Made by a program: the position numbers and the translations under genes. DNA of 64,000 nt from an uncultured bacterium. Its GTDB lineage: Bacteria > Eisenbacteria > RBG-16-71-46 > JABDJR01 > JAWXBZ01. Under the pieces are notes generated by a model, which made no database searches, had not been told where the DNA came from, and saw only the letters and a list, made by a program, of their open reading frames with translations. Numbering within the stretch: position 1 is the first letter of the stretch; each line of letters opens with the position of its first letter. Location of the stretch: positions 27,275 to 91,274 of the forward strand of contig CAZQVN010000007.1 in assembly GCA_964596775.1 (NCBI GenBank). Direction: 5' to 3'. Of the stretch, positions 1 through 51,983 are shown piece by piece.

Positions 1-908
1 CCGGACGGAGCACCGGACGTGGTCGTTTCCGTGACCTCGGCTCCCCCACGCTCCTCGATCGGGATGTCCTTCCCCGAGGCGAGCGAGAAATCGAACGTGG
101 ACAGGGGCGCGGCCACATAGAACGGCACCCCGGCGGACTGCGCGGCCAGGGCCACGGTTAGGGTGCCTATCTTGTTGGCGGCATCACCGTTACGGGCTAC
201 GCGGTCCGCCCCGACGATGACCAGATCGACCTTCCCCGAGTGCAGGAGGCTCGCCGAGGCCCCGTCGCAGAGGACCGTCACCGGAATCCCCTCCCGGGCC
301 ATTTCCCAGGCGGTCAGGCGGGCCCCCTGGAGCAGTGGGCGTGTTTCGTCGGCAAACACACCCACCGCCCTCCCGGCCCGCCGGGCGGCGTAGACCGGGG
401 CCAGGGCCGTCCCGAGTCCCCCCGTGGCCAGGCCGCCGGCGTTGCAGTGGGTCAGGACGCCGGCCCCCTCCTTCAGCAGGGCCAGGCCGAACTCACCGAT
501 CTTCCGGGACGTTTCCAGGTCGGAATCGAGGATCGCCTGAGCCTCGGCACGAAGCCCCTCCGCCCGGGTTCCCGGATCGCCGTCCCGTTCTTTCGCGGCC
601 ATGGCCGCCATCCGGTCCAGCGCCCAGAACAGGTTGACCGCCGTCGGTCGGGTCCGGCGCAGTCGCGCGTCGGCGGCGGCGAGCGCGGCGTCGAGATCCT
701 TCCCCTCGCGCACCGCCCGGTGCGCCGCCATGGCGATGCCGAACGCGGCGCCGATGCCGATGGCGGGCGCCCCGCGGATCGCCAGCGTCTCGATCGCGTC
801 GGCCAGGATCTCGAGTTCGTCCGTCTCCACGAATTCGAGGCGGGCCGGCAGCAGGCGCTGATCGATGTAACGGACCTTTCCGTCCTTCCAGCGCACGGTT
901 TCAATCAT
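1..908 (-). CDS. mtnA: S-methyl-5-thioribose-1-phosphate isomerase (partial, 3' end beyond window start)
   Basis: Not in the ORF track; translated by hand from ATG at 908: MIETVRWKDGKVRYIDQRLLP...IRGAPAIG...RPTAVNL...LTHCNAGGLAT...DETRPLLQGARLTAWE. ATGA overlap with the upstream gene stop. Confidence 0.95.
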   Translation of the reverse strand, partial: MIETVRWKDGKVRYIDQRLLPARLEFVETDELEILADAIETLAIRGAPAIGIGAAFGIAMAAHRAVREGKDLDAALAAADARLRRTRPTAVNLFWALDRMAAMAAKERDGDPGTRAEGLRAEAQAILDSDLETSRKIGEFGLALLKEGAGVLTHCNAGGLATGGLGTALAPVYAARRAGRAVGVFADETRPLLQGARLTAWEMAREGIPVTVLCDGASASLLHSGKVDLVIVGADRVARNGDAANKIGTLTVALAAQSAGVPFYVAAPLSTFDFSLASGKDIPIEERGGAEVTETTTSGAPS

Positions 909-1966
909 GATGAGACCTTTCTCAGTAGTTCGAGGACACGGGCCAGCGGGAGCCCGACGACGTTTTCATAGGACCCCTCGATGCCGTCGACGAGGCAGGC
1001 GCCGAGCCCCTGGATGCCGTAGGCGCCGGCCTTGTCCATCGGTTCGTTCGTCTTCACGTAGGCGTCGATCTCCGCGGGGGACAGCGCGCGGAATGTCACG
1101 CGCGTCGTTTCCACGGCGGAGTCGATCTTACCATCCGCTCGGACCAGGGCTATCCCGGTGTGCACTTCGTGCGTCCTGCCGGAGAGCGATTCCAGCATCC
1201 GCCGCGCGTCGGCGTGGTTCACCGGCTTGTTGAGGAGCGCGCCGTCGATGTCGACGACCGTGTCGGCGGCCAGCAGCACGCGGCCGGGATTCCTCCCCGC
1301 CGCCGCCCTTGCCTTGCGTACGGCGAGTTCCAGCGCCACCTCCTTCGCCTTTGCCCCCGGCTCCGGGGTTTCATCCACGTCGATCAATACGATTTCGAAC
1401 GGGATTCCGGCCTTGCCGAGGATCTCGGCGCGGCGCGGGGATTGCGAGGCCAGCAGAAGGGGCGGGCCGGAGTAGACCGCGGCGCCGAGGCACGACTGGG
1501 CTCCGGGTTCCGGCGCGGCTGACGCCGCGTCGGTACTGATCATCAGCGTCACCGGTCCCTCGTTCACGATCGTCACCTTCATCATCGCCTGGAAGACGCC
1601 GGTGCGGACGTTCGCGATCCCGGCCGCCCGGAGTTCGGTCACGAACAACTCGTACAGTTCGTTCGCGACCTCCGGCCGCGCCGCGTCGGTGAACGACGGC
1701 CGCCTCCCCCGCTCCGCGTTCCCGTACAGCGTGAACTGCGACACGACGAGCGCCTCCCCGCCGGCTTCGAGAACGCTTCGGTTCATCCTGCCGGCGTCGT
1801 CCTCGAAGATGCGGAGGCCGGCGCACTTCCGCGCGAGCCACCCTGCATCGTCCGCCGTGTCCCCGGTCCGGACCCCGAGAAGGATCATCAGGCCCGGGCC
1901 GATCGAGGCGGAATGTCCGGGTGCGGTGACGGATGCCGAGGAAACGCGCTGGATCAGGGCTCGCAA
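905..1966 (-). CDS. dtd: Fused D-aminoacyl-tRNA deacylase (Dtd) / Maf-family nucleotide pyrophosphatase
   Basis: N-half (M)RALIQRV...SQFTL...NEGPVT (Dtd). C-half LLASQSPRR...ADTVV...DKAGAYGIQG...NVVGLP (Maf/YhdE). Start placed at TTG 1966 behind GGAG. Confidence 0.92.
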   Translation of the reverse strand: MRALIQRVSSASVTAPGHSASIGPGLMILLGVRTGDTADDAGWLARKCAGLRIFEDDAGRMNRSVLEAGGEALVVSQFTLYGNAERGRRPSFTDAARPEVANELYELFVTELRAAGIANVRTGVFQAMMKVTIVNEGPVTLMISTDAASAAPEPGAQSCLGAAVYSGPPLLLASQSPRRAEILGKAGIPFEIVLIDVDETPEPGAKAKEVALELAVRKARAAAGRNPGRVLLAADTVVDIDGALLNKPVNHADARRMLESLSGRTHEVHTGIALVRADGKIDSAVETTRVTFRALSPAEIDAYVKTNEPMDKAGAYGIQGLGACLVDGIEGSYENVVGLPLARVLELLRKVSS

Positions 1967-1991
1967 GGGATCTCCGGAGGACAAAAGAAGG

Positions 1992-2021
1992 GTGACACTG
2001 CGCTCGTTGCGGCGCTAGAAT
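1992..2021 (+). promoter_or_regulatory. Putative sigma70 promoter of the copper radical oxidase gene
   Basis: GTGACA-18 nt-TAGAAT; SD GGAG before ATG 2065. Confidence 0.45.
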
Positions 2022-2064
2022 AGCACTTCGATCGGTTTCTTCCACGTCCTCCAGGAGAATCCGA

Positions 2065-4953
2065 ATGCCGCGATTCCCGCGAACAGGAGCACCTCCGCAC
2101 AGCAACACCCGCCGGCGCCCCGGGCCCGCGATGTTCGCCGGCCTCCTGGCGGTGGCGGCGGCCGCGCTGCTCTCCTCCGTCGCAACGGCCGGTCCCCCTC
2201 CACCCGACCCGATCTACCGGCAGACCGGCTACTGGGAACCCCCGTACGACTGGGCCGGCCGCGGAACGCACATGGCGCTGTTGCGCGGAACGGATTCGCA
2301 CAGCCAGATCATCTTCTGGCACTCCGGCGACGGCGTGCGGATCTGGAAATGGAACCCCGGCGACAGTCTCTCGGCCTCGAGTCCGATTCTTCTGCGACCG
2401 ACCCCGGGCACGGACGTTCACTGCGCGGGCGAATCGATGCTCACCGACGGCCGGCTCTACGCCACCGGCGGCAACGAGGTCCTCGGGATCGACGAGGTCA
2501 ACATCTACGACCCGGTCACCACGCAGTGGACCCAGCAGCCGCTCGACATGGAGTATCACCGCTGGTACCCCACGAACACGACGCTGGCCGACGGCCGGGT
2601 GCTGATCACCGCGGGGCTGATGTTCCAGGAATACGTGGGCTTCGGCGGGCGGGACGACACCCAGGTCCACGACGACCTGGCGGTGCTCGGCATGAGGAAC
2701 CCGAGCGCGAACCTGTGGATCCCCTCGCAGGCCGCGGCACCGCGGCCTTCCGCCCGGGAGGATCACACCGCGATCTTCGACAATGCCCTCGGCGCCACGA
2801 CCTCGAACAATTATCGGTTTCAGCACCGGACGGTGATCTTCGGCGGCCGGTCCTTCGGCGGCCCGCCGATGTCCGACGTGTGGGCGCTTCACCGCAGCGA
2901 GTTTTCCGAGTGGAGCTGGACGCAGCAGTTCCCCGCCGCCGACGCCCTGTGGGGAGCACCCGCGGCCCGGAGTGGTCACGCGGCCGCCTTCGACCGCCCG
3001 GACTCGAGCATGGTCGTGATCGGCGGAACCGATGCCGCCGGCCAGCCGCTCGGCGATGTCTGGAAGCTGTTCCTCTACCGGAGCGGGGGCGGCCTGTGGG
3101 CGCGCCTGTTTCCGGCCGGCGGCGACTCGACGCTGCCGCGCTCCGGACACACGGTCGTCTACGACGCCGCGGCGCGCCGGGTGATCCTCTTCGGGGGGCG
3201 GAGCGGTGCCGCGTACCACAACGACGTGTGGCAGCTGTCCCTTTCCGGAACTCCGGCGTGGACAAAACTGGTCACGACGGGAACGCCTCCGGCGCCGCGC
3301 GAGGGGCACGCCGCCCAGTTCGACACGGCGCGGAACCGGATGATCGTCTACGGAGGACGGAACGGATCGACGCCGTTCGGGGATGGCTTCACGCTCTCGC
3401 TCGGCGGCGGAACGCCCCAGTGGGCGGCGCTGACGCCGGCCCCCGACGCGCAGGCGGGAACCCCGGCGGCCCGGTTCGATGCCGCGGCCGCTTACGACGC
3501 CTACTCCGACCGCCTGCTGATTCACGGCGGCGACACCGACACGACGTCGGGCGCCGGTGCCGCCGGCGACTTCTGGGCCATCAACTTCTGGCCGGCCCCG
3601 GCCTGGCGGCGTCACCACGCGACCCTGCCCGCGGGAGGTCGCGCGGGGCACGCGGCGCTCCTCGATCCGCGGTTCCTCCACGCGCCGTACCCGGAGATCT
3701 ACGACCCCGACGCGGACACCTACACCCTGCTCGGCGACGCCCAAAAGGTGACGGTCTTCTATCCGAACATGTATCTCCTGCCGGGAGGCAAGGTCCTCAT
3801 GGCCGGAGCCCAGGTGTCCACGTTTCTCCTGAACCTGTCCACCGGCCAGTGGGAAACCCCGCCGTGGACGAACAGCGGATTCAGCGGCTTCACCGCGACG
3901 ATGTACCGCCCCGGCATGGTGCTCAAGTGCGGGGGCGCCGGCAACACGGGGGCCTCCACCACGAAGCGGATCGACCTTTCCGGCGACGTCCAGTCGGCCT
4001 CCTGGCAATCCGTGGCCGCCTCGCCGCCGCTGATCCCCCGCGTGCTCCAGAACCTGGTCGTCCTTCCGACCGGCGATGTGCTGGCCACCGGCGGCATGGG
4101 CGACCAGAACGTGGTGGCCACCGCCGTGCGGTACCCGCAGATCTGGAGCCCGGTCACGGATGCATGGACCGACTCCGCGCTCCTCGCCCCCGATCCCTGC
4201 GTGCGCGACTACCACTCGTCGTCGATTCTCCTGCCCGACGGACGGATCCTGTCGGCCGGAGGGGAGTTGAACGCCGGCCCCGGAGGTCGCGACAAGTTCC
4301 GCGCCTCGATCTTCTGGCCTCCGTACCTCTTCGACGCCGCGGGGGCACCGGCCGCCCGCCCGGAGGTGACCTCCTCCGACAGCGCCGCCGCCTACGGAGC
4401 CCCCTTCTCCGTCTGCACGCCGGCGGCGGCCTCGATCCAGAGCGTCTGCCTCATGCGACCCGCGGCCACGACGCACGGAGTGGACATGGAGGCGCGCTAC
4501 GTGCCGCTTGGCTTCAGCGTCAGCGGGAACTGCCTGTCCGTGACCGCCCCCCCGGACGGCAACACGGCGCCGCCCGGCCTGTACTTGCTCTATCTCGTGA
4601 CGCAGGACTCGGTGCCGTCGATCGGCCGCTGGATCCGCCTGGGCGCTCCGGTGTCCGGCGCGCCCCCCGCCGGGATCCGGACGCCGGAGCTGTCCGCCTA
4701 CCCGAATCCGTTCCGCGCCGGCACGCGGTTTCACTACGTCCTGGATCGCGGCGGACCGGTGTCGCTGGTCATCGTCGACGTGGCCGGAAGGGTCGTGCGC
4801 TCTCTCCTGGAATCGGAAACGGGCCGCGGCGCCCACGAGGCGGAGTGGAACGGGCTGGACGATCGAGGGGCGCCGGTGGCGGCGGGCGTCTATTTCGCGA
4901 GGCTGTCCACGGAGTCGGGAGTGAGCGTGAAGAAGGTGACGGTGAAACGGTAG
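2065..4953 (+). CDS. Secreted galactose-oxidase-like copper radical oxidase (AA5-like) with inserted Kelch propeller, DUF1929-like Ig domain and C-terminal FlgD-Ig/T9SS-like domain
   Basis: Signal peptide; DVHCAG, RWYPT, RDYHSSSILLPDGR and TTHG motifs; six Kelch GG repeats; C-terminal YPNPF...WNGLDDRG...GVYF. Confidence 0.85.
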   Translation: MPRFPRTGAPPHSNTRRRPGPAMFAGLLAVAAAALLSSVATAGPPPPDPIYRQTGYWEPPYDWAGRGTHMALLRGTDSHSQIIFWHSGDGVRIWKWNPGDSLSASSPILLRPTPGTDVHCAGESMLTDGRLYATGGNEVLGIDEVNIYDPVTTQWTQQPLDMEYHRWYPTNTTLADGRVLITAGLMFQEYVGFGGRDDTQVHDDLAVLGMRNPSANLWIPSQAAAPRPSAREDHTAIFDNALGATTSNNYRFQHRTVIFGGRSFGGPPMSDVWALHRSEFSEWSWTQQFPAADALWGAPAARSGHAAAFDRPDSSMVVIGGTDAAGQPLGDVWKLFLYRSGGGLWARLFPAGGDSTLPRSGHTVVYDAAARRVILFGGRSGAAYHNDVWQLSLSGTPAWTKLVTTGTPPAPREGHAAQFDTARNRMIVYGGRNGSTPFGDGFTLSLGGGTPQWAALTPAPDAQAGTPAARFDAAAAYDAYSDRLLIHGGDTDTTSGAGAAGDFWAINFWPAPAWRRHHATLPAGGRAGHAALLDPRFLHAPYPEIYDPDADTYTLLGDAQKVTVFYPNMYLLPGGKVLMAGAQVSTFLLNLSTGQWETPPWTNSGFSGFTATMYRPGMVLKCGGAGNTGASTTKRIDLSGDVQSASWQSVAASPPLIPRVLQNLVVLPTGDVLATGGMGDQNVVATAVRYPQIWSPVTDAWTDSALLAPDPCVRDYHSSSILLPDGRILSAGGELNAGPGGRDKFRASIFWPPYLFDAAGAPAARPEVTSSDSAAAYGAPFSVCTPAAASIQSVCLMRPAATTHGVDMEARYVPLGFSVSGNCLSVTAPPDGNTAPPGLYLLYLVTQDSVPSIGRWIRLGAPVSGAPPAGIRTPELSAYPNPFRAGTRFHYVLDRGGPVSLVIVDVAGRVVRSLLESETGRGAHEAEWNGLDDRGAPVAAGVYFARLSTESGVSVKKVTVKR

Positions 4954-4960
4954 GAGAGCC

Positions 4961-7153
4961 TCAGGCCGTCCCCTCCTCCTCCAGATCGTCGAACAGGAAC
5001 TGGTGCCGCTCCACGCTCGATACCCCCTTCACCTTCTTGATCGCCTTGATCACCCGTTGCAGGTGATTGAGGTTCTTGACCTCGATGATGAACGTGCCCT
5101 GGGCCTGGCCGTCCACGGATTTCATTCCGGCGTTCTTGATGTTCGTGGCCGTCGTCGAAACCGCCGACGCGATGTCCGCAAGCAGCATCTGGCGGTCGGA
5201 CCCGTAGATCACGAGCTTCACGACGAACGACTTGTCCTCGTCGACGTCCCACGAGAGGTCCATCCGCCGGTCCTTGTCGACCTTGTCCTCGAACGTGTTC
5301 GGACAGTCCACCCGGTGCACGGACAGGCCGCGGCCGCGGGTCACGATGCCGATCACCTGGTCGCCGGGAACGGGCTGGCAGCAGCGGGCAAAGTAGATCA
5401 TCAGGTTGCCCACGTCCTGGATGCGGATCCCCTTGCCGGTGCCGATCGTCAGGTCCTTGATCCGCTGGAGCGGGTTCAGCTCCTTCTTCTTCTCCGCGAT
5501 CTCCGGGAACAGGCGGACCAGCGCGTTGTGGGCGCCCACGTGACCTTCGCCGATGGCCCGGAGCAGCCGGAACGGATCGGGAAAGCCGAACGACTGCGCC
5601 GCGTCGATGAGATCCTTGTCCACCGGAACCTTCACGTGGAAGCGCCGCGCCTCGCGGCCGAGCAGGTCGCGGCCCAGCGCCACCGAGTCCTCCGTCCGCT
5701 GCTCGGTCAGCCAGCGACGGATCTTCTGGCGCGCCCGCGGCGACTTGACGATCGACGTCCACTCCTCGGTCGGATGCGCGGACGGCGAGGTCACGATCTG
5801 TATCGAATCCCCGTTCCGCAGCACGTACTTGAGCGACACGATCCGGTTGTTGACCCGGGCGCCGACGGTGCGATGGCCGATGTCGGTGTGAATGAGGTAG
5901 GCAAAGTCGAGCGGCGTGGATCCCTTCGGCAGCCGTTTCAACTCCCCCTTGGGGGTGAACACGAAGACCTCGTCCTGGTACAACGAGGTCTTGAGAAAGT
6001 CCATGAATTCGCCGCCCGACTCGTCGGAGAGCATTCCCGATTCGCCGAAGAGGTCGCCGAGCTTGGCGGCGAGTTCCGAATCGGGCCCCGACCCTTCCTT
6101 GTAGGAATAGTGGGCGGCGATTCCGAGTTCGGCGATCCGGTGCATCTCCACCGTGCGGATCTGCACCTCCACCATCTTGTGGTTGGGGCCGATGACCGTC
6201 GTGTGCAGCGACTGGTACATGTTCCCCTTCGGCGTGGCGATGTAGTCCTTGAACCGCTCGTGCACCGGCGTGAACAGGTCGTGCAGCACGCCGAGAACCC
6301 GGTAGCAGTCGGCCTTGTCCTGCGTGACCACCCGGACGCCGAGCAGGTCCTTGATGTCGGCGAAGTCGCGTTCCTGGGTGACCATCTTCCGGTAGATCGA
6401 GTAGAGATGCTTCGGCCTCCCGGTGACCTCGGCCCTGATTCCGGCCTTCTCCAGTTCGGTGGTCATCGGGGTCAGCACGTCGGAGATGAGCCGCTCGCGC
6501 TCCGACCGGGTCAGCGACACCTTCTCCGCGAGTTCCTTGTACCGCGGGTAGTTGAGATGCTTGAAGGACAGGTCCTCGAGCTCCCACTTGATCCGCCCGA
6601 TCCCGAGGCGATGCGCCAGCGGCGCGTAGATGTCCTGCGTTTCCCTGGCGATCCGCCGCGCCTTCTCCGGCTTCAGGAAGTCGAGCGTGCGCATGTTGTG
6701 CAGGCGGTCGGCCAGCTTGATGAGGATGACCCGGATGTCCTTGGCCGTGGAGAGGAGCATGCGGCGGAAGTTTTCCGCCTGTTCCGACTCGGTGGATTCG
6801 AACTCGAACCCGGTGATCTTCGTGACCCCGGCCACCAGCGCCGCCACCTCCTCGGAAAACTCCGTGGACAGCGTGTCCAGCGTGATGTCGGTGTCCTCGA
6901 CCACGTCGTGGAGCAGGGCCGCGATGAGCACCGTCTCGTCCACGCGCCCGTCGAGAAGCTCGACGAGAATGCGGGCCACCTCGACCGGGTGGTACATGTA
7001 CGGCTCGCCGGACTTCCTGAACTGGCCGGCGTGGGCGCTGTTCGAGAAATGAAACGCCCGCCGGATCGCGTCCCTGTCCAGATCGAGGTGCCGCGCGTCG
7101 ATTTCGCCGATCAGGGAATCGATGATGCCGCTCGACCTGTCCCCGGGAATCAT
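4961..7153 (-). CDS. rel: Bifunctional (p)ppGpp synthetase/hydrolase, long RSH
   Basis: RKSGEPY, LLHDVVED (HD), KLADRLHNMRTL, GRPKHLYSIYRKM, YQSLHT, TGS (PKGSTPLDFAY) and ACT domains. Start ATG 7153 overlaps the recJ TGA. Confidence 0.96.
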   Translation of the reverse strand: MIPGDRSSGIIDSLIGEIDARHLDLDRDAIRRAFHFSNSAHAGQFRKSGEPYMYHPVEVARILVELLDGRVDETVLIAALLHDVVEDTDITLDTLSTEFSEEVAALVAGVTKITGFEFESTESEQAENFRRMLLSTAKDIRVILIKLADRLHNMRTLDFLKPEKARRIARETQDIYAPLAHRLGIGRIKWELEDLSFKHLNYPRYKELAEKVSLTRSERERLISDVLTPMTTELEKAGIRAEVTGRPKHLYSIYRKMVTQERDFADIKDLLGVRVVTQDKADCYRVLGVLHDLFTPVHERFKDYIATPKGNMYQSLHTTVIGPNHKMVEVQIRTVEMHRIAELGIAAHYSYKEGSGPDSELAAKLGDLFGESGMLSDESGGEFMDFLKTSLYQDEVFVFTPKGELKRLPKGSTPLDFAYLIHTDIGHRTVGARVNNRIVSLKYVLRNGDSIQIVTSPSAHPTEEWTSIVKSPRARQKIRRWLTEQRTEDSVALGRDLLGREARRFHVKVPVDKDLIDAAQSFGFPDPFRLLRAIGEGHVGAHNALVRLFPEIAEKKKELNPLQRIKDLTIGTGKGIRIQDVGNLMIYFARCCQPVPGDQVIGIVTRGRGLSVHRVDCPNTFEDKVDKDRRMDLSWDVDEDKSFVVKLVIYGSDRQMLLADIASAVSTTATNIKNAGMKSVDGQAQGTFIIEVKNLNHLQRVIKAIKKVKGVSSVERHQFLFDDLEEEGTA

Positions 7154-8868
7154 GCTCCGGCCCTCACGTCGCGGAAGCGCAGCTGGATGGCGCCTTCGCC
7201 CGCGTACTCGTCGAGTGCCGGAGTGGCGGCGAGCGTGGCCCGGCCTCCGCCCCGGGCCAGTTCCTCCGCATGCTGGGCCAGGTTGAAGCCGATGGCCGTC
7301 ATCCGCTGCCGGCCGTTCGTCACCCGGAGCCGGAGATGACCGTCGCCGACAATCCGGGGCGGGCCCATCATCTTGAGGTCGCGCAGGAGGAACAGCGGCT
7401 CGGGACACCCGGCGCCGAACGGGCCGAGCCGGTCGAGAAAGTCGAGGAGCCCGGTGTCGAGGTCCTCCGGCTGAAGGTCCGCGTCGAGGGTCAGCGGCTG
7501 GTGGTCGGTGTCCGGCGCCGCGTCCCGGACCAGGCCGCAGAGCCGTTCGAACAACTCGTCGAGGCGGTCGCGGTGAACGGTCAGGCCCGCCGCCTGGCTG
7601 TGACCCCCGTGCGCGATCAGGATGTCGGACATCTCGGCGAACGACCGGCCCACATCGAAGCCGCCGAACGAGCGGGCCGAACCGCGGCCGACGTCTCCCT
7701 CCATGGAAATGAGCAGCGTGGGGCGGCGGAACGTTTCGGCCACGCGGGCGGCGGCGATGCCGATCACGCCGGCCGGCCAGTCGTTCGACCAGAGGACGAT
7801 CATGGGCGGGACCTCGCCGAACGCCTCGACCTGTTCCTTCGCGGCCAGCGTCACCCGCTGGTCCGCCTCGCGGCGCTCGGTGTTCATCGTCACGACATCC
7901 CTCGCCAGCGCCTCGGCCTGTTCGAGCGTGTCGGCGAGCAGCAGGTCCACGCCGAGCGAGGCCTTCCCCATGCGCCCGGTCGCGTTCAGCCGCGGAGCGA
8001 GCTGGAACGCCACCTGCGATGCGCTGATTATCCCGGGCGAAAGTTTCGCCGTGTTGCGGAGCGCCACGATGCCCGGCCACTCCGACCGCGACAGGGCGCG
8101 GAGCCCGTGCACCACGAACGTCCGGTTCTCGTCGGTCAGCGGAACGACGTCGGCGATCGTGCCGAGGGCCACCAGCGACAGCGCGTCCACGTAGACCAGC
8201 GGATCCAGGGAGCCCCGGCGCGTCATGGCCATCCCCTGGATGAACTTGGCCGCCACCCCGACGCCGCAGAGCCCGGTGAACGGGTACGTGGCGTCCTCGC
8301 GCATGGCGTCGACGACGGCCACCGCGTTGGGCAGCACCGGCGGGGGCTGGTGATGATCGAGCACGATCAGGTCGATGCCGTGACGGCGGGCCTCCTCGGC
8401 GGGCTCGTTGGCGGTGACGCCGCAGTCCACCGCGATGATCAGGCGGGCGCCGCGCCGGCGCGCCTCGGCAAGCCCGGCGGGCCCGAGTCCGTAGCCGTCC
8501 TTGACCCGCTCGGGCAGAAAATAGGACACGTCCGCCTTGAGTTCGCGAAGCATCTTGAGGAGAAACGACGTGCCGACGATGCCGTCCACGTCGTAATCGC
8601 CGTGCACGAGGATCGGTTCCTTCCGATCGATCGCCTGCCACGCGCGTTCGACGGCCCTGTCCATGTCGGGAAGGCCGAACGGATCGCGGAGCGCCTTGAG
8701 CCTCGGGTCGAGGAAGCGGGTGGCGGTTTCCGGGCTGGAAACGCCGCGGCGGAGCAGAAGTTCGGCGCCGATCCTCGGGACCCCGAGCGCATGAACGAGC
8801 GACGCGGCTTCCGCTTCTGGTACAGCGGGAGCCACGATCCAGTCGCGCTCCATCCCTTTCAGTCTCAC
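7150..8868 (-). CDS. recJ: Single-stranded DNA exonuclease RecJ
   Basis: GDYDVDG, VDCG, DHH, LGTIADVVPL, APRLNATGR, GSARS, GGHSQAAG; GGAGG before the GTG. Confidence 0.96.
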   Translation of the reverse strand: MRLKGMERDWIVAPAVPEAEAASLVHALGVPRIGAELLLRRGVSSPETATRFLDPRLKALRDPFGLPDMDRAVERAWQAIDRKEPILVHGDYDVDGIVGTSFLLKMLRELKADVSYFLPERVKDGYGLGPAGLAEARRRGARLIIAVDCGVTANEPAEEARRHGIDLIVLDHHQPPPVLPNAVAVVDAMREDATYPFTGLCGVGVAAKFIQGMAMTRRGSLDPLVYVDALSLVALGTIADVVPLTDENRTFVVHGLRALSRSEWPGIVALRNTAKLSPGIISASQVAFQLAPRLNATGRMGKASLGVDLLLADTLEQAEALARDVVTMNTERREADQRVTLAAKEQVEAFGEVPPMIVLWSNDWPAGVIGIAAARVAETFRRPTLLISMEGDVGRGSARSFGGFDVGRSFAEMSDILIAHGGHSQAAGLTVHRDRLDELFERLCGLVRDAAPDTDHQPLTLDADLQPEDLDTGLLDFLDRLGPFGAGCPEPLFLLRDLKMMGPPRIVGDGHLRLRVTNGRQRMTAIGFNLAQHAEELARGGGRATLAATPALDEYAGEGAIQLRFRDVRAGA

Positions 8869-8909
8869 CGGCGCCTCCGCAGGTTGGATGATTATATAAA
8901 TCCAATCCT

Positions 8910-8942: not shown

Positions 8943-10211
8943 TCAGGGGTCGGGGACCGCCACCCGGACCTCGAACGGGCCGCTGAAACCGTCCAGTCGC
9001 GCAAGGACCGCGCCGGTCGGACTGATGCGCACGAGTTGATCGGCCCGGAGATCCGTCACCCAGAGATCGCCGGATGCCGGGTCGCGCGCGAGACCTCCCG
9101 GGTTGCGGACGTCCGTCAGGGTCGTGATCGTCGTGCCCGCCGGATCCAGGCGGACGATGCGCCCCGCGGCGTTGTCGGTGACCCAGGCGCCCCCCTCGCC
9201 GTCGGAGATGACCTGGAACGGCGCCGCGAACGCATCGTTCCGGAACAGCACGGTGTCGGCGGCGCCGGACACCCGGAAGACCGCGCCGCCCCGGTCCGCC
9301 ATCCAGCAGTCGCCGGTGGCCGGATCCACCGCGACGCTGAACGGGCGGTCGAACCCTTCCAGGACCGTCATCGATCCGTCCGGCCGGCGGTGCAGCAGCC
9401 GCCCCTCGGAGTCGGCCACCCAGACATCGCCGCGACGGATGTCCAGGGCGATGTCCTCGGGAATTCCGATTCCCGAATCGGCGGACACGAGAACGGTGAG
9501 CGAAGGCGACCGGTGTTCGAGAACCGAAGGCCCGTAGATCCCGATCCAGACCGTGGAGTCCGCCGGATTCATGGCCACCGAGAGCGGCTGTCCCCCGGTG
9601 GACAGGGTGGCCTGCCGCGCTCCGTCGCGGTCGTACCGATCCACCTTTCTCTCGAAGAAATCCGCGGTCACGACCCCTCCGTTTCCGGGAAGGATGTCGA
9701 GGTCGCTCGGGATCCGGGTTCCTCCGGGGCGGGCGAGGACATGGCGGGCGTCCGGCGAAACGGGCGTGGGATTTCCGGACCGCTGATCGAGAACCCACAG
9801 CACCCGCCGACCCGGCGTGGCCGGCGACGGCGCCCCGCGGACCGGGGACGCATTCCCGGCGAAGAACGTCGAAAGCGTGTACGTGTAGGTGGAGTCGTTG
9901 ACGACCGCCGTGTCGAGCAGGGAGCGCGCGCCGCTCCCCGGCCCGGGATCGATCGTCAGCACGGCTCCGGCGGCATCCCGTCTTTCGATGGAAAAACCGA
10001 CGAGATCCGTGTACTCCGGCAGTTCCCACTCAAGGGTCACCCGGCCGTTCCCGGCGACGGCCGCGAAGATGTCCGGATTGCCTCCGGTGTCCGGGTTGTC
10101 CGGATCGAACAGGTTGTCGTGATCCCGGGGCGAGCATCCGGATGCGGAGAGCCAGAGGGCGGCGACGAGACCGATGACGGCGCCGCGCCACCGGGCATGC
10201 CTAGAAACCAT
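8943..10211 (-). CDS. Lipoprotein with FN3-like domain and NHL/Vgb-like beta-propeller
   Basis: Start re-placed at MVSRHARW; lipobox ASG-C; RDHDNLFDPDNP; repeats of P.(D/G/S)(L/I/V)A.D...G..WV.D. Confidence 0.75.
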   Translation of the reverse strand: MVSRHARWRGAVIGLVAALWLSASGCSPRDHDNLFDPDNPDTGGNPDIFAAVAGNGRVTLEWELPEYTDLVGFSIERRDAAGAVLTIDPGPGSGARSLLDTAVVNDSTYTYTLSTFFAGNASPVRGAPSPATPGRRVLWVLDQRSGNPTPVSPDARHVLARPGGTRIPSDLDILPGNGGVVTADFFERKVDRYDRDGARQATLSTGGQPLSVAMNPADSTVWIGIYGPSVLEHRSPSLTVLVSADSGIGIPEDIALDIRRGDVWVADSEGRLLHRRPDGSMTVLEGFDRPFSVAVDPATGDCWMADRGGAVFRVSGAADTVLFRNDAFAAPFQVISDGEGGAWVTDNAAGRIVRLDPAGTTITTLTDVRNPGGLARDPASGDLWVTDLRADQLVRISPTGAVLARLDGFSGPFEVRVAVPDP

Positions 10212-11121
10212 GCCGGACCCCCAGCCTGTAGCGGGCTTCGCCGGTGGCCGGTTCCAGGTCCACCGCGGCCGTCGGAACGAGCCCGCGCGGTTCCTCATGG
10301 ATGATCAGGAAGAACGTGGCCAGGAACGCCGCCTCGCCGACCGCCCACCCCACGAGGGACAGCCGGTCGAATCGAACCGCATCGTCGAACAGCCGCTTCT
10401 GGCGGTCGCGGTTTCCCGTCCGCAGGTACGCGTCGTAGCGATCGTCCGCCTGGTCCTTGAAACGCACGGCCGTGTAGACGCCCGCGGCAAGCAGAGTGAC
10501 CGATCCGCCGATCGCCAGCGCCCTGTTGCGGGCCCACCAGGAACCCTCGGAGGCACGGAGCCGCGCCGGAACCGGCGGCGCGAGCGGGTCGAGCTCCACC
10601 CGCTTCGAACCGGAAACGCGGGTATCGGCCAGGACGCTGTCGCCGGGCAGCGTCACCCGGCGGTAGCCGTCGAGGTCCACGAGCAGATCGGTGCCCCACA
10701 GCAACTCCGGCGGCAGGCGCACCGGAGTTTCCCCGATCGTGCGGCCGCCGGCGAGCACCCGGGCTCCCGACGGAGAAGTAAGCAGAACCGGACGGCCGAG
10801 TTCCACGGTCACGGTATCCCCGGCGGCCCCGGTGATCGAGACCGATTCGAAGGGGGGCAGAAGGCTCCGGTCGGCGGGGCGGAGCAGAAGGGTATGCCGG
10901 CCCGGTGCCACCGGGACTTCCTGGATGGAAAACTCCGTCCAGGGAACCGGGGCGCGTTCGGAGTCTCCGGTCAGGTCGATCAGGTCGGCCCCGTCCATGA
11001 CGACCGTGCCCGGACGGAGCACCACGAGCCGGAGCAGCAGGCTTTCCGACGCGGCGGCGGCGTGCGGATGAGCCGGAACGAAGGTCAGCAGCGCGAGGAG
11101 CAATACGGAGCGCGGTTTCAT
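10201..11121 (-). CDS. Exported PEGA-domain protein with C-terminal hydrophobic helices
   Basis: Signal peptide MKPRSVLLLALL; LTSPSGARVLAGGRTIGETP...DLDGY (PEGA-like); ATGA overlap with the upstream gene. Confidence 0.65.
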   Translation of the reverse strand: MKPRSVLLLALLTFVPAHPHAAAASESLLLRLVVLRPGTVVMDGADLIDLTGDSERAPVPWTEFSIQEVPVAPGRHTLLLRPADRSLLPPFESVSITGAAGDTVTVELGRPVLLTSPSGARVLAGGRTIGETPVRLPPELLWGTDLLVDLDGYRRVTLPGDSVLADTRVSGSKRVELDPLAPPVPARLRASEGSWWARNRALAIGGSVTLLAAGVYTAVRFKDQADDRYDAYLRTGNRDRQKRLFDDAVRFDRLSLVGWAVGEAAFLATFFLIIHEEPRGLVPTAAVDLEPATGEARYRLGVRHGF

Positions 11122-12245
11122 GGTCTCTCCCCCGCCTCCGGGTCGCCCGGCAGGGCGGCAAAGTCGTAGGCCACGATGCGGCCGCGGTCGCCGGCCACGA
11201 TCCACAGGCCGCCGGCCGGCACCGGAGGCACGGATACCGTTTCGGGATGACGGACCCGCGCCACAACCTCCCCCGTCTCCGCGCGGAGAACCCAGACGAG
11301 TCCCGACGCGGCCGCCACGGCCACGACGGCACCGTCGCCGGCCGCGGTTGCGCGGAACGGCCCGCCGAGGGCAACGCGCCACGCGGTCGACCCGTCCGCG
11401 GTATCGACGGCGGCCACGCTTCCATCGAGGCCGGCCATCACGATGCGGGACCCCGACCATTCCGGGCGGGAGGTCACCCGCATTCCCAGTTCCGCTTTCC
11501 AGAGGCGGTTTCCGGTGACGGCGTCGAGAAAGTCGAGCCGACCGTCCACCGAGGCGGCTGCCACCCGCTTCCCGAGGGCGGCAATGCCGCAGAGCGCACT
11601 CCCCACGTCGGCGGACCAGCGCTTTTCGCCGCTCCGCGCATCGACCGCGAAGACTTCACCGTTGCGCCCTGGGACGAGGAACAGCGCGTTCTCCCTGTCC
11701 AGCACCGGCGGGCCCCAGACATCGGCATTGAGATTCGTGACCCAGATGGGACGCCCCTCGTGGGGCGACAGGCCGAAGACGCGGCCGTCCCGGGTGGCCA
11801 GGAGTACGGCGCCCTCGAAGAAGAAGGCGCTTCCCGTCACCTCGCCGACTTCATGCCTCCAGCGGACCTTCTTCTTCCCGAGGTCGAACATGTACGCCGA
11901 GCCGTCCGGAACCGACGTTCCGGCAAACAGGGTGCCGTCATGCAGCGTCAGGCTCCCGGTTGCCGAGCCGTCGATCCGTTTCCTCCAGCGCCGGCGACCG
12001 GTGTCGGGGTCGTACTGGACGATCCGCCGGTCGGTGGTGGCCACGTACAGCGCGCCCGCCTCGAACAGGAGCGGCACCTCGATCCCCCGCCCGGCATCCT
12101 CGGACCAGGCCACGGCAGCGGCGGGAAGGGCGTCGAATCCATGCGGCGCGAGAGCCTCGCCCCGGCCCGAGCCCGCGCACCCGTTCAGGCCCCAGAGACA
12201 GGCGGCGGCCAGCAGGAGGAATCGGCGGTTAATAGTTGAATCCAA
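11118..12245 (-). CDS. BamB-like PQQ-repeat beta-propeller lipoprotein
   Basis: Lipobox LNG-C; repeated A.D..TG...W tryptophan-docking motifs. Confidence 0.85.
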   Translation of the reverse strand: MDSTINRRFLLLAAACLWGLNGCAGSGRGEALAPHGFDALPAAAVAWSEDAGRGIEVPLLFEAGALYVATTDRRIVQYDPDTGRRRWRKRIDGSATGSLTLHDGTLFAGTSVPDGSAYMFDLGKKKVRWRHEVGEVTGSAFFFEGAVLLATRDGRVFGLSPHEGRPIWVTNLNADVWGPPVLDRENALFLVPGRNGEVFAVDARSGEKRWSADVGSALCGIAALGKRVAAASVDGRLDFLDAVTGNRLWKAELGMRVTSRPEWSGSRIVMAGLDGSVAAVDTADGSTAWRVALGGPFRATAAGDGAVVAVAAASGLVWVLRAETGEVVARVRHPETVSVPPVPAGGLWIVAGDRGRIVAYDFAALPGDPEAGERP

Positions 12246-15093
12246 TGAAGAAGTCCGTATCCGTTCTCCGGGTCACCGTCCTGAAATCGGTGGTCCGGGT
12301 GAAGTCGAACCTGAGAACGAGAAACCCGCCCAGGCTCGTCCGCAGGCCGAGGCCGAACGCGCCGAACGGCGTGGGAACACCCTCCCCTTCCTCCCAGGCG
12401 TTGCCGGCATCCGCGAGCAGGGCGCCCTGCACGGGCGGCAGCCCGATGTTGCCGAACGGAAACCCGAGAAGGACGCCGTCGAGCAGCGGGAAACGGAGTT
12501 CATTGTTCCACAGCAGCGAACGGCTGCCAAACAGCGAGCGCCGGGGGAAACCGCGGAGCGAATGCGAGCCCCCGAGCACGAAACGCTGCCGGTTCGTACC
12601 CTCCGATATCCGCCCCTGGAGCCGGACGGCGTACCCGGAGCGGAAACCGATCCGGAAGTAGCGCCTCAGGTCGGCGATCACCGCCACGTTTTCCACGTTG
12701 GCCCGCTCGAGATCCGTGGTCACGCCGACTGCGAGGTTGTAGCGGCTTCCGTCGATCGGCCCCAGCGGGTTCCACAGGCTGTTGTCGTGGATCAGCGACA
12801 GGTAGTTCGTGGCCAGGACCGCGGTTCTCGCCTGCCGGAAGGAATCGTCGGAGCGATCCGAGTGGAACAGGAACAGCGAGGACTCGATCCTGTCGAACTT
12901 GGAAAACGGATAGCTGCCGATGAAGTTGACGCCGGCGCGCCGCTCGAAGTAGCGGAAGTCGCGCTCGTCGAGGAAGTCGCCGGCGAAGTGATACGCGCCG
13001 GCTCCGTAGTTGAACCGCCGGGTCAGGTTGAAGTAGGTGAAGCCGGCGTTGAACCGGGAGAGAAGGTCGCCGGTCGTTTCCGCGGTGTTCGACAGCTGGA
13101 AGAAGATGAGCTGGTCGCCGAGCTGGTCGGTCAGGAGCGCCTGCAGCCCCTCGCCGGACCCCAGTCCCGGGTCCACCGCCACGCCGCCCTGGGCAAAATC
13201 GAGGGAGAAACGCTTGCGGTACGGGATCGTTTCGGCCCGGACGTTCTCCATCCCGTCCTCGACACCCCACGGCAGCCGCATCTCCGTCGAATCGGGCGGC
13301 GAGCCTCCAGCCGGCGCGGCGAGGGAGGCCAGCGGCTCGGAATAGACCAGCGGTCCGTCCGCGGCCTCCACGGAGTCGATGCGGTAGATTCCGTAGCGAA
13401 GGCGATGGTACGCCGTGTAGAGGAACCCGTCGTCCGCCGGAAGCCAGACCGGGTCGAACGCCCCCCCCTGCAGCGACGTCACCCGGAATCCATGCCCGTC
13501 GAGATCGGTGACATGGATCTGCGGAGCGCCCGACCGATCGCTGACGAACGCGATCCGGTCGCCGGCGTGCGACCAGGCCGGGGCCCCGTCCTCGAAATTG
13601 CCCCGGGTGACGGCGCGGATCAGCCCGGTATCACGGTCGAAGAGGAAGATGTTGCGCGATCCGCTGCGGCCGTCCGGCGTCCGGTCCGAGGAAAAGGCGA
13701 TCCGTCTGCCGTCCGGGGAAAACGCGGGATCGAGGTCCTGGTACCAGTCGGCGGTCAGCTTTTCCAGCCGTTCGTCGTCGAGGTGGAACAGGTACAGGTC
13801 GGAGTGGCCGTTCTGCGAGAGGCCGGAAAACGCGACGAGCCGGCCGTCGGGGCTCTGCACCGGCGAGAGGATCCCGTTCAGCCCCTCGAACTGGTAGCGG
13901 GCGATCTGCCGGCGCTTCTTCAGGTCGTAGAGGAACAGCGCGTCGCGCTCGTGGAACTTGGAGGTGAAGACGAGGCGGCCGTCGTGCCCCACGTCGATGC
14001 GGCTCTGGAACGGATGGAGGGATTCGTACTCGGCGGTGCGCTCGCCTTCGACGATGACGTCCAGGTCCTTTTCCTCGCCGGCGATCGAGGCCATGTAGAT
14101 GTTCGTGTATCCGCTGCGCGGCGAGACGAAGAGAAACCGGTCCTCGCCGAGCCCGGCCGACGCCGGAACCAGCGTCGGCTTGAAGGACGGTCCGCGGACC
14201 GCGAGTGGCTTGCCGTCCTCGGTGGGGGTCCGGGCCATCTCGATGCCGGGATAGAAACGGAGCTTGAGCCGGCGGTGCCACTTTTCGGAGAGCTCCCGTT
14301 CCGAAATGCCGAGCGTGATGTTCAGAACGTCGCTGAACGAACGTCCCTTCCAGAGGTTCTGGTACAGCGCGGGAATGGCGTCCGGGCCGTATTCCTCCTC
14401 GATGAAACCGCAGAGATCCTGGCCGACCTTGTAGATCGTGAACGATCCGTAGAAGCGCCAGAGGTCGGGAATGGCCGGCAGCTGGTTCGAAAGCACGAGA
14501 TCCCGAAGGACCATCTCCCCGATGCCGTCCCACTTTCCCGACCAGAGATCGGCCATCCCCTCCGACATCCAGAGCGGCGCGTCCACCGGCTGTCCGCGAT
14601 AGTGCCGGCCGTACACGCTTTCAAGGATGGAGAGCTGGTACACGTGCACGAGTTCGTGATGGATCGTGGAGCGGAAATCCGACATCGAGCCGTTGAACGG
14701 AATGGCCACCCGCCCCTTGATGAACTCGGTGAATCCGGCCACGCCCTCCGGAAGAAAGAACGGGCTGATGTTCGTCTGCTCGAAGTCCTGGTGGCTGGCA
14801 TAGATGATCAGCGGAATGCGATGGTCCACATGCCAGGCAAAGCGCACCGCGAGGTCGGCGAACGACTCCTCGGCCATCGCCAGCGCGATGGTCGCCAGCG
14901 ATTCCTCTTCCGGATAGAAGAACAGATCGAAGTGGGGGCTCTTCAGCACGCGCCACTGAAAGTCCGTGTACTGAATCTTGTTCTTGCCGAAACTGATCGT
15001 CTGGCCCGAAGCGGGCTTCGGCGCCAGGCAGAGCAGTGCCAGGGCCAGCAGGAACGGCGGGGTGAGGAGGCCACGCCGGAGCGGAACAGTCAC
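12229..15093 (-). CDS. Omp85/BamA-family protein: peptidase-MA-like domain + PD40/TolB-like propeller + beta-barrel, no POTRA visible
   Basis: HELVH and LWMSEGMA; PD40 repeats (PAFSPDGRRIAFSSDR); barrel with LGGSHSLRGF and terminal FFIGFNY. Start GTG 15093 behind GAGGAGG, downstream of the promoter. Confidence 0.85.
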   Translation of the reverse strand: MTVPLRRGLLTPPFLLALALLCLAPKPASGQTISFGKNKIQYTDFQWRVLKSPHFDLFFYPEEESLATIALAMAEESFADLAVRFAWHVDHRIPLIIYASHQDFEQTNISPFFLPEGVAGFTEFIKGRVAIPFNGSMSDFRSTIHHELVHVYQLSILESVYGRHYRGQPVDAPLWMSEGMADLWSGKWDGIGEMVLRDLVLSNQLPAIPDLWRFYGSFTIYKVGQDLCGFIEEEYGPDAIPALYQNLWKGRSFSDVLNITLGISERELSEKWHRRLKLRFYPGIEMARTPTEDGKPLAVRGPSFKPTLVPASAGLGEDRFLFVSPRSGYTNIYMASIAGEEKDLDVIVEGERTAEYESLHPFQSRIDVGHDGRLVFTSKFHERDALFLYDLKKRRQIARYQFEGLNGILSPVQSPDGRLVAFSGLSQNGHSDLYLFHLDDERLEKLTADWYQDLDPAFSPDGRRIAFSSDRTPDGRSGSRNIFLFDRDTGLIRAVTRGNFEDGAPAWSHAGDRIAFVSDRSGAPQIHVTDLDGHGFRVTSLQGGAFDPVWLPADDGFLYTAYHRLRYGIYRIDSVEAADGPLVYSEPLASLAAPAGGSPPDSTEMRLPWGVEDGMENVRAETIPYRKRFSLDFAQGGVAVDPGLGSGEGLQALLTDQLGDQLIFFQLSNTAETTGDLLSRFNAGFTYFNLTRRFNYGAGAYHFAGDFLDERDFRYFERRAGVNFIGSYPFSKFDRIESSLFLFHSDRSDDSFRQARTAVLATNYLSLIHDNSLWNPLGPIDGSRYNLAVGVTTDLERANVENVAVIADLRRYFRIGFRSGYAVRLQGRISEGTNRQRFVLGGSHSLRGFPRRSLFGSRSLLWNNELRFPLLDGVLLGFPFGNIGLPPVQGALLADAGNAWEEGEGVPTPFGAFGLGLRTSLGGFLVLRFDFTRTTDFRTVTRRTDTDFFIGFNY

Positions 15094-15133
15094 GAAAAGA
15101 TCGCCTCCTCGACACGGGGAGAAAACTGCCCAA

Positions 15134-15163
15134 AGTCTAGTGACCAAAGGACTTCCCTGTCAA
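15134..15163 (-). promoter_or_regulatory. sigma70 promoter of the Omp85 operon
   Basis: Minus strand TTGACA (15163-15158)-18 nt-TAGACT (15139-15134). Confidence 0.7.
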
Positions 15164-35367: not shown

Positions 35368-35925
35368 TCAGCCGGCCCGGATCCAGGCCCTGAACCCGAC
35401 CAGCGCCAGCAGCCCGAGGATCGTCCGAAGGGTCGGCCACTCCTGCGTCAGCGCGGTTGCCGTGACCACCGGGCCCCTGACCCCGGCGTTCCGCCCATCG
35501 CGGAAGGACCGCCAGGCCGCCCCCCACTCCTCTTCGAGAAAGAGATCCTCGCGACGGGTGAACAACCCGTACTGAATCAGGAACAGGGCCCCGAACAGGA
35601 GCGGAAACCAGGGAAGAAACGCGCGTGACGCCACGAGAAACCCGGCACAGAGGAGCAGGTTGCCGGCATACAGGGGATGGCGCAGCAGCGCGTAGGGGCC
35701 GGACGTGACCAGAACCGGAGCGCGCAGCGACCGTCCGCGCGAGTGCGCGCCGATGTGGGACACCGCCCACACGCGGAGAGCCTCGCCGGCGAGGATCAGC
35801 CCTGCTCCGAGCAGGAAGGACAGCGTGGACGGTCGCGCTCCCCAGACGAGCAGGACGGCAAACGGAACCGCGGTGACCCCGCGGTTCCGGAACAGCCACC
35901 CGCCGAGCCGGGCAACGAACGTCAG
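35368..35925 (-). CDS. Isoprenylcysteine carboxyl methyltransferase / PEMT family membrane protein (start uncertain, possibly CTG)
   Basis: [31 protein letters not shown]; no ATG/GTG/TTG near the expected N-terminus. Confidence 0.8.
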
Positions 35926-38276: not shown

Positions 38277-38360
38277 TGGAAACCTCCAGGTTTCCGGCTC
38301 GGGGAAGCCCGAAGCCTCGTCCACATTACGGCCGCGGCACCAGGCCGGACCGGTCCGTTC

Positions 38361-40619: not shown

Positions 40620-40702
40620 CCCCGGGAGAGATGGGACTCAAGGATCAAAACAGGCAGCGAATGTATACAAAGTATACAGACAATCGATACATCTTTGACA
40701 AC

Positions 40703-51902: not shown

Positions 51903-51983
51903 CATTCCTGAGTTTTACCCGGTTCATCGACAAGAGTAAACACCCCGACGGTTGTTGCGCTGCATCCATGGAGGTCTCATCTT

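Follow-up and report, generated by a model that had tools for sequence, protein, structure and literature searches.

Among the described copper radical oxidases (CROs), the closest to the protein treated here is GlxA of Streptomyces lividans. Its catalytic propeller (residues 55-142 and 261-541) is split by a separate Domain 2 (residues 143-260) (PMC11022532), which sits atop the propeller as a shield over the copper site, and its activity is essentially limited to glycolaldehyde (PMC11611005). Both GlxA (W288-Y289) and the AA5_1 aldehyde oxidases (W509-Y510) use the Trp that precedes the Tyr as a second-shell residue, and in AA5_2 enzymes the second-shell aromatic is W290, F138 or Y334 (PMC13094651). 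More specifically, the D-A and B-C loops make up one face of a Kelch propeller, which is the copper face in galactose oxidase, and it is the B-C loop after Y272 that bears the stacking W290 of this enzyme (PMC11611005, PMC13094651). The present analysis concerns a single gene in a 64-kb stretch of Eisenbacteria DNA (hereafter the window, meaning the whole stretch). This gene encodes a putatively secreted homolog of these oxidases, whose seven-bladed catalytic propeller is predicted to harbor, nested within it, a complete six-bladed Kelch propeller.

The window protein resembles GlxA (4UNM) in being structurally closest to it, in having the same first-shell ligands and Cys as well as the same Trp-Tyr pair, and in the interruption of the propeller, which likewise falls in a B-C loop on the predicted copper face. 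Because of Domain 2, an internal module on the copper face is therefore not unprecedented, and the novelty with respect to GlxA lies in the insertion site, the size of the insert and the nature of the guest, a complete propeller. Specifically, GlxA carries a non-propeller domain of 118 amino acids (aa) in blade 2, whereas the window protein carries a six-bladed Kelch propeller of 356 aa in blade 3. In the alignment, the insertion point of GlxA falls one blade earlier, in the B-C loop of blade 2, and Streptomyces GlxA homologs have about 140 residues there against 19 in the window protein (query residues 136-155 versus residues 137-277 of the homolog P0285). The window protein also differs in being without an N-terminal membrane anchor of the GlxA kind and in ending in a tail of the type IX secretion system (T9SS) type, which has no counterpart in GlxA; furthermore, no cslA-like neighbor, as associated with GlxA, was found in the window or at three homolog loci.

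The fungal AA5_1 glyoxal/aldehyde oxidases (such as FgrAldOx, 9N3U) share the Glyoxal_oxid_N and E-set domains, and the second-shell Trp adjoining the cross-linked Tyr, but they have no internal propeller, show low sequence identity and use eukaryotic secretion. Their accessory modules (WSC) are terminal. The first-pass annotation described accessory modules as normally terminal; in GlxA, Domain 2 is internal and sits in the neighboring blade. The Fusarium galactose oxidase (AA5_2, 1GOF) and CgrAAO (6RYV) have in common with the window protein the seven-bladed Kelch propeller, the Cys-Tyr cofactor, the Tyr/His/His ligands and an E-set domain as the donor of one His. However, the loop that bears W290 in galactose oxidase (Y334 in CgrAAO) is where the insert starts here, which weakens the analogy, and the window protein is without a CBM32.

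In a literature search, no paper was found that describes a Kelch propeller nested in a CRO, or a propeller nested in a propeller, although such sequences are present without comment in public databases, and for Eisenbacteria only ecological surveys were retrieved. Other accessory domains are known to be spliced into propeller loops near the functional face, for instance the I-domain of integrin alpha chains and the lectin domains of bacterial sialidases, but these guests are not themselves propellers.

Copper site and nested propeller

The open reading frame (ORF) is intact and uninterrupted, and encodes 962 aa (Table 1). Its match to solved oxidases (CgrAAO 6RYV/6RYW/6RYX, galactose oxidase 1GOF and GlxA 4UNM) is split between residues 116-220 and ~543-858. 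In Pfam, Glyoxal_oxid_N (PF07250) is recognized at residues 116-190 (44.2 bits, cut-off 37.5) and the galactose-oxidase-like E-set domain (PF09118) at residues 765-858 (78.4 bits, cut-off 25). Residues ~250-500, on the other hand, match the Kelch proteins LZTR1 and KLHDC2 instead of oxidases among the solved structures, and several Kelch models in Pfam (PF24681, of the KLHDC2/KLHL20/DRC7 type, with 154.8 bits, cut-off 50). The active-site motifs quoted in the first-pass annotation, DVHC120AG, RW167Y168PT, RDY716H717S and TTH804G, are all present and had been assigned correctly: in the alignment to solved CROs, C120 corresponds to the Cys of HDMFCPG in 6RYW, Y168 to its cross-linked Tyr, Y716-H717 to its axial Tyr-His and H804 to the His of its E-set domain. 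The copper ligands Y168, Y716, H717 and H804 are invariant or nearly so in alignments of 13, 27 and 59 sequences, as is C120 in the last of these. Judged by its sequence, this is an intact gene for a CRO homolog with the complete set of ligands.

Within the family of insert-bearing homologs (see below), all 27 aligned members retain C120, Y168, H717 and H804, and all but one retain Y716. The member that departs from this pattern, P0264 (1433 aa), has His in place of the axial Tyr (RRHHS instead of RDYHS) with the other four residues kept, and its copper site may be altered. Such a loss, together with the many non-catalytic Kelch surface proteins with a C-terminal sorting domain in the phylum, might be taken to mean that oxidase activity has been abandoned altogether and that two stacked propellers now form a structural or adhesive surface protein. 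We regard this as highly improbable, given that the catalytic residues are maintained as above in spite of an overall identity of only ~35-50%, and that the catalytic parts are better conserved than the insert.

The limits of the insert were set by alignment with insert-less relatives and by the strands of an AlphaFold2 model, which was built from a 59-sequence alignment. Thus delimited, the insert lies between ...DGRVLITAG184 and P541YPEIYDP, where relatives have 9-13 residues, such as TSSGVTQQT in P0002. The first-pass annotation had placed the resumption of the oxidase at PYPEIYDP as well, and only its extent for the insert (~340 aa, at ~2630-3670) has to be enlarged slightly (Table 1). The model has a mean predicted local distance difference test score (pLDDT) of 91.7 and a predicted template modeling score (pTM) of 0.83, and is of low confidence only at residues 1-40 and 863-871; the stretches of sequence containing the five catalytic residues have pLDDT values of 89-96, and values in the insert are mostly 90-98. 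In the structural comparison, which had been proposed together with the modeling, the best Foldseek matches of the whole model are GlxA (4UNM, E 3e-27) and then galactose oxidases.

When both catalytic pieces are joined, secondary structure assignment by DSSP gives seven four-stranded blades, of which host blade 3 consists of strands A (170-173) and B (179-182), followed by the insert, and strands C (544-547) and D (552-555). The insert itself comprises six four-stranded blades, in keeping with the six Kelch repeats reported at first, and superposes on the six-bladed propeller of KLHDC2 in Foldseek (template modeling score 0.74, target-normalized; root-mean-square deviation ~5 A over ~347 columns). 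Pairing of the exit strand (530-539) with the entry strand (185-193) closes its blade 1'. Both strands are about twice the usual length, and the halves nearest the host (LMFQ and PRFLH) make up a two-stranded stalk that is joined to the host by linkers of two residues inbound (AG, 183-184) and four residues outbound (APYP, 540-543). A model of the family member P0154 (39% identical; pLDDT 89.9, pTM 0.84) has the same topology, with the entry strand at 173-184 and the exit strand at 514-527. As the insert amounts to 37% of the chain, pTM values of 0.83-0.84 imply, by the definition of this score, that it is placed confidently relative to the host. The models thus describe a complete six-bladed Kelch propeller nested in a seven-bladed catalytic propeller.

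The insertion point is the B-C loop of catalytic blade 3, 17 residues past the radical-bearing Tyr168 and within two residues after A183-G184, the equivalent of the GG doublet in the host blade. M186, the second residue of the entry strand, aligns with Y/F/W334 of 6RYV/6RYW/6RYX (which differ from one another only at this position), that is, with the equivalent of W290. The insert would therefore emerge on the copper face, at the site of the AA5_2 second-shell aromatic, and strand topology in this way supports the initial proposal of a propeller near the active-site face. The entry strand ends in a GG doublet, which identifies it as a B strand, so that the face formed by the A-B and C-D loops of the insert should point to the host. 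By the same topology, the canonical ligand-binding face of the insert (B-C and D-A loops) is predicted to point away from it.

Spread, origin and stability of the family

A homolog search covered 1.84 billion representatives exhaustively, and among the best 150 clusters, which were examined, about 30 share the layout, with query residues ~30-865 matched in one or two stretches and lengths of 922-1433 aa. In all 27 aligned family members an insert of 354-417 aa occupies the same site. In addition, species-representative genomes (GTDB) were scanned, the best 80 of 588 relatives were kept and the gap between the two catalytic pieces was measured. This gap is strictly bimodal: it is 357-463 aa at 23 loci, where every title that names a phylum reads Candidatus Eisenbacteria or Eiseniibacteriota, and 12-24 aa at 49 loci from Chloroflexi, Acidobacteria, Actinomycetes, Planctomycetes, Proteobacteria, Methylomirabilota and others. 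Nine assemblies in this set have two copies. The architecture is therefore not routine among bacterial AA5 homologs at large, which had been named as an outcome that would refute the observation; within Eisenbacteria it is the rule for a whole family, and the window protein is not singular. One member has an NCBI accession (MDZ4805493.1) and is annotated just as 'galactose oxidase-like domain-containing protein'. An exact look-up of the window protein in the contig index gave no match.

The insert-less bacterial CROs ('DUF1929 / galactose oxidase-like'; from Acidobacteria, Chloroflexi, Actinomycetes, Planctomycetes and others) are 30-41% identical to the window protein over both catalytic pieces and share the motifs RWYPT, RxYHS and THxFD. 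They differ in the 12-24 aa at the insertion loop, and a sorting tail was seen in none of those aligned. In a neighbor-joining tree of residues 545-860, the catalytic part that follows the insert, the 28 sequences with an insert group in a single clade (bootstrap 54/100), and P0015 is among its nearest outgroups. A profile built on the C-terminal catalytic part retrieved insert-less oxidases and the truncated P0001 and no full-length insert-bearing members, the candidates of this search being limited by its word index. Taken at the sequence level, the nested architecture defines a monophyletic, often multi-copy family, so far found in Eisenbacteria only. In longer paralogs the internal propeller is retained, and the E-set domain is followed, ahead of the tail, by a right-handed beta-helix or an fn3 domain.

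The closest homolog, L001, with 63% identity in the catalytic part, comes from a JGI contig of 4.3 kb and has its two halves on opposite strands (the N-terminal half at 716-1693 on the minus strand, the C-terminal half at 1873-3704 on the plus strand) and with a frameshift near 1968-2079; it is either an inversion pseudogene or an assembly artefact. A contig of this kind could speak for the idea that the nested layout itself is the product of misassembly or of a chimeric gene call. Nevertheless, the window ORF is uninterrupted, its GC content at third codon positions (GC3) is uniform, and the layout recurs in NCBI, JGI, ENA and Logan assemblies as well as at the 23 species-representative loci. 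This recurrence on many independent contigs and assemblies rules out an assembly artefact, to which we attach next to no probability.

With regard to the origin of the insert, stand-alone Kelch proteins of Eisenbacteria (such as P0026 and P0030, ~750-850 aa) have a propeller of the same type and, like the window protein, a FlgD-Ig/T9SS tail, but no oxidase domain; the window protein embeds such a propeller inside an enzyme. Over ~350 aa the insert is 35-40% identical to these propellers (E ~1e-48), and on this similarity it derives from the stand-alone Kelch proteins of the lineage. A different source, internal duplication of host blades, was considered and rejected, as there is no significant similarity between them (E >0.04).

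The blade 3 B-C loop seems especially prone to changes in length. P0015, an insert-less relative of 571 aa, has a mini-insert of 31 aa in the same loop, and in the Actinomycete-type sequences L032, L053, L054, L056, L063, L072, L074, L076 and L082 the loop is 23-24 aa long instead of 12-13 aa. This tolerance, and the fact that a Kelch domain can be inserted without disturbing the host since its termini are adjacent (a consequence of propeller closure), would fit with an insert that is a neutral passenger, fixed by chance in one lineage and without a functional role. We consider this improbable, because all members of this deeply diverged clade, including several paralogs from one genome, have kept a complete six-bladed propeller (354-463 aa), because the scaffold residues of the insert are under clear constraint, and because 23 of 27 members have an aromatic residue (Tyr, Phe or Trp; Phe in the window protein) at position 187 in the stalk, where no insert-less relative has one.

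Export signals and genomic setting

The protein carries putative export signals at both ends (Table 1), which supports the earlier prediction that it is secreted. The signal-peptide-like N-terminus is of low pLDDT and has a helix at residues 25-35 in the model, and homologs have equivalent hydrophobic N-termini. The C-terminal domain passes FlgD_ig in Pfam (30.0 bits, cut-off 27, residues 899-950), as the FlgD-Ig assignment of the first-pass annotation suggests, and is better described by the NCBIfam model TIGR04183 for T9SS type A sorting domains (40.8 bits, cut-off 23, residues 879-961); in the model it forms a beta-sandwich at residues 876-960.

Table 1. Features of the oxidase gene and its upstream region, in window coordinates
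Feature	Position	Strand	Basis
Whole gene, putatively secreted copper radical oxidase with nested Kelch propeller (stop codon included)	2065..4953	+	domain matches, AlphaFold model
Promoter-like site GTGACA-18 nt-TAGAAT (10/12 consensus matches)	1992..2021	+	consensus match only
Shine-Dalgarno-like AGGAG, 7 nt upstream of ATG	2053..2057	+	direct sequence reading
Signal-peptide-like N-terminus (residues 1-42): RRR n-region, hydrophobic MFAGLLAVAAAALLSS, then VATA/G	2065..2190	+	sequence reading
Catalytic propeller, N-terminal piece (residues 55-184): blades 1 and 2, strands A and B of blade 3	2227..2616	+	Pfam Glyoxal_oxid_N, 6RYW alignment, DSSP
C120 codon	2422..2424	+	
W167-Y168 codons	2563..2568	+	
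Inserted six-bladed Kelch propeller (residues 185-540, 356 aa)	2617..3684	+	Pfam PF24681, model, Foldseek, alignment gap
Catalytic propeller, C-terminal piece (residues 541-760): strands C and D of blade 3, blades 4-7	3685..4344	+	alignments, DSSP
Y716-H717 codons	4210..4215	+	
Galactose-oxidase-like E-set domain (residues 761-860), carries H804	4345..4644	+	Pfam PF09118, 6RYW alignment
H804 codon	4474..4476	+	
Flexible linker (residues 861-872)	4645..4680	+	pLDDT <50 at residues 863-871
C-terminal sorting domain (residues 873-962), T9SS type A / FlgD-Ig-like beta-sandwich	4681..4950	+	TIGR04183, FlgD_ig

The same sorting domain ends three other ORFs of the window. Two of these (35925-38360 and 38364-40637, both on the minus strand) are tandem FG-GAP / ASPIC-UnbV repeat proteins of ~800 and ~750 aa with a FlgD-Ig/T9SS-type sorting domain. 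The third (51912-53576, plus strand) is a CarboxypepD_reg / SdrD-B-like protein whose tail passes both Pfam Por_Secre_tail (28.8 bits, cut-off 27) and FlgD_ig. No T9SS component is found among the annotated genes of the 64-kb window.

The oxidase gene is solitary, and the promoter-like site upstream was found once against 0.2 expected in shuffled sequences. It is divergent from a Dtd-Maf fusion gene and adjoins relA/spoT and recJ, in a window that is core chromosome (rpoD, dnaG, mutS2, nuoG, lepA, glmS and glmM). Its GC3 of 0.89 is similar to that of neighboring genes; recent horizontal acquisition or a mobile island was considered and rejected on these grounds, namely the agreement in GC3 and the core-chromosome surroundings. 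A conserved operon partner was looked for at four loci (the window and three homolog loci) and none was found, the neighbors at the three homolog loci being unrelated.

Some of the neighboring ORFs are worth describing in their own right. The divergently transcribed gene (905-1984, minus strand) is a single ORF of 359 aa in which a D-Tyr-tRNA deacylase domain (aa 8-149) is fused to a Maf nucleotide pyrophosphatase domain (aa 176-356). On the other side, the listed frame of 1314 aa (4961-8905, minus strand) spans relA/spoT and upstream sequence; RelA/SpoT domains cover only its last ~779 aa, recJ (7150-8868) overlaps the rest in another frame, and the ORF as listed is a high-GC artefact of ORF listing. 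Two further predicted beta-propeller proteins are encoded nearby, an NHL-repeat protein of 451 aa (8943-10298, minus strand) and a PD40-repeat protein of 972 aa (12232-15147, minus strand), the N-terminal region of which is weakly, sub-threshold, Peptidase_MA-like.

Enzyme type and possible role of the insert

The second-shell Trp directly before the cross-linked Tyr (W167-Y168; in the family this position is W in 22 of 27 members and Y in 5 of 27), together with the Glyoxal_oxid_N match, favors an enzyme of the glyoxal-oxidase/GlxA (AA5_1) type rather than a galactose oxidase, so that the galactose oxidase analogy of the first-pass annotation is best replaced. The stacking aromatic of AA5_2 enzymes is absent from its B-C loop position, where the window protein has M186 and the family R, K, M or Q. 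There is likewise no Pfam match to an N-terminal CBM32, the catalytic propeller beginning at ~residue 55. The GlxA equivalog NF052501 scores 153.1 bits against a cut-off of 800, with a best stretch of only residues 618-858. The enzyme type hints weakly at a substrate class, small aldehydes, as for AA5_1 enzymes and GlxA.

Several properties of the insert bear on its role. It diverges faster than the catalytic parts (mean pairwise identity 0.32 versus 0.40-0.46), and its A-B and C-D loops are especially variable (0.13-0.18 identity, with indels up to 59 aa), whereas the B-C and D-A loops keep their length across the family. The comparison of loop conservation between the two faces is confounded by the scaffold motifs (GG and Arg/His), which are located in the B-C and D-A loops and in part account for the higher identity of these loops. 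The strongly conserved positions of the insert (GG, Trp, Arg, His, Asp and Pro) belong to the generic Kelch scaffold only. Conserved binding residues were not found in the insert, and the targeting role that the first-pass annotation gave it is neither supported nor contradicted.

One possibility is that the insert acts as a binding module, whose distal face (B-C and D-A loops) anchors the oxidase to a polymer or to some component of the cell surface and leaves the active site unshaped. The B-C and D-A loops are the canonical Kelch binding face, and fungal CROs are tethered by CBM32, WSC or PAN modules. Kelch propellers such as KLHDC2 and LZTR1, to which the insert is closest in structure and sequence, use this B-C/D-A face for ligand binding, and the distal loops are of fixed length. 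Furthermore, the related stand-alone Kelch proteins have the same export tail, and the fold is therefore used outside the cell in Eisenbacteria. Against this, the conserved positions of the distal face are merely the generic GG, Arg, His and Pro of the scaffold, a pure tether would work equally well at a terminus (as the beta-helix and fn3 domains of the paralogs), and the rigid linkers of two and four residues at the W290 position point to a link with the active site. A role in tethering is hence rather unlikely, with a chance that is well below that of a role at the active site.

The reading that we prefer, and hold to be somewhat probable, is that of an exported oxidase with a Tyr-Cys/Cu site that releases H2O2, in which the insert forms a canopy over the copper face and controls access or specificity. 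The protein would cross the inner membrane via its N-terminal signal peptide, and its C-terminal T9SS-type domain would direct it to the cell surface or the medium. Copper would be bound by Y168, Y716, H717 and H804; a C120-Y168 thioether would form, on which W167 stacks like W288 in GlxA, and an aldehyde or primary alcohol would be oxidized with O2 under release of H2O2. In this reading, the insert would be held rigidly above the copper face like a canopy. Since the A-B and C-D loops are host-facing, hypervariable and rich in indels, they probably shape the substrate cleft and set access or specificity, in parallel to Domain 2 of GlxA. The differing loops of paralogs and their extra terminal modules (beta-helix, fn3) suggest a diversified toolkit of extracellular oxidases.

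There are a number of points that weigh against this reading. Topology and pTM are the basis for the ligands converging, for the insert lying over the copper site and for the cleft itself, and the substrate class is extrapolated from one Trp-Tyr motif. The indel tolerance of the host-facing loops could simply reflect a solvent-exposed, unconstrained face, and within the family the insert shows no conserved residues beyond the scaffold that would indicate a binding site. In addition, P0264 has lost the axial Tyr, the support for a single origin is moderate (bootstrap 54/100), and at the four loci no conserved neighboring gene points to a substrate or partner.

A more far-reaching version of the canopy is one in which the insert is a rigid lid whose hypervariable host-facing loops, possibly together with its central channel, form a gated cleft or tunnel above the Tyr-Cys-Cu site and give each paralog its own substrates, as part of a T9SS-delivered, surface-displayed toolkit that Eisenbacteria would have expanded; this is offered tentatively, as a bold proposal that is more apt to fail than to hold. 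If true, each paralog would admit a different extracellular polymer end or metabolite, and a new way of building specificity into a CRO would have been found. The enzyme chemistry itself is probably ordinary, and it is the architecture that is unusual. CROs are sought-after biocatalysts in which the second shell and accessory modules determine the range of substrates, and a whole propeller that replaces a W290-type loop over the copper face would be a new scaffold in which access control can be studied or engineered. It would also be the second independent case, after GlxA, of a domain insertion on the copper face, and for structural biology a clean example of a beta-propeller inside a blade loop of another. 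For the phylum, finally, a lineage-specific, multi-copy family of putatively secreted oxidases would be a mark of these uncultured soil and sediment bacteria.

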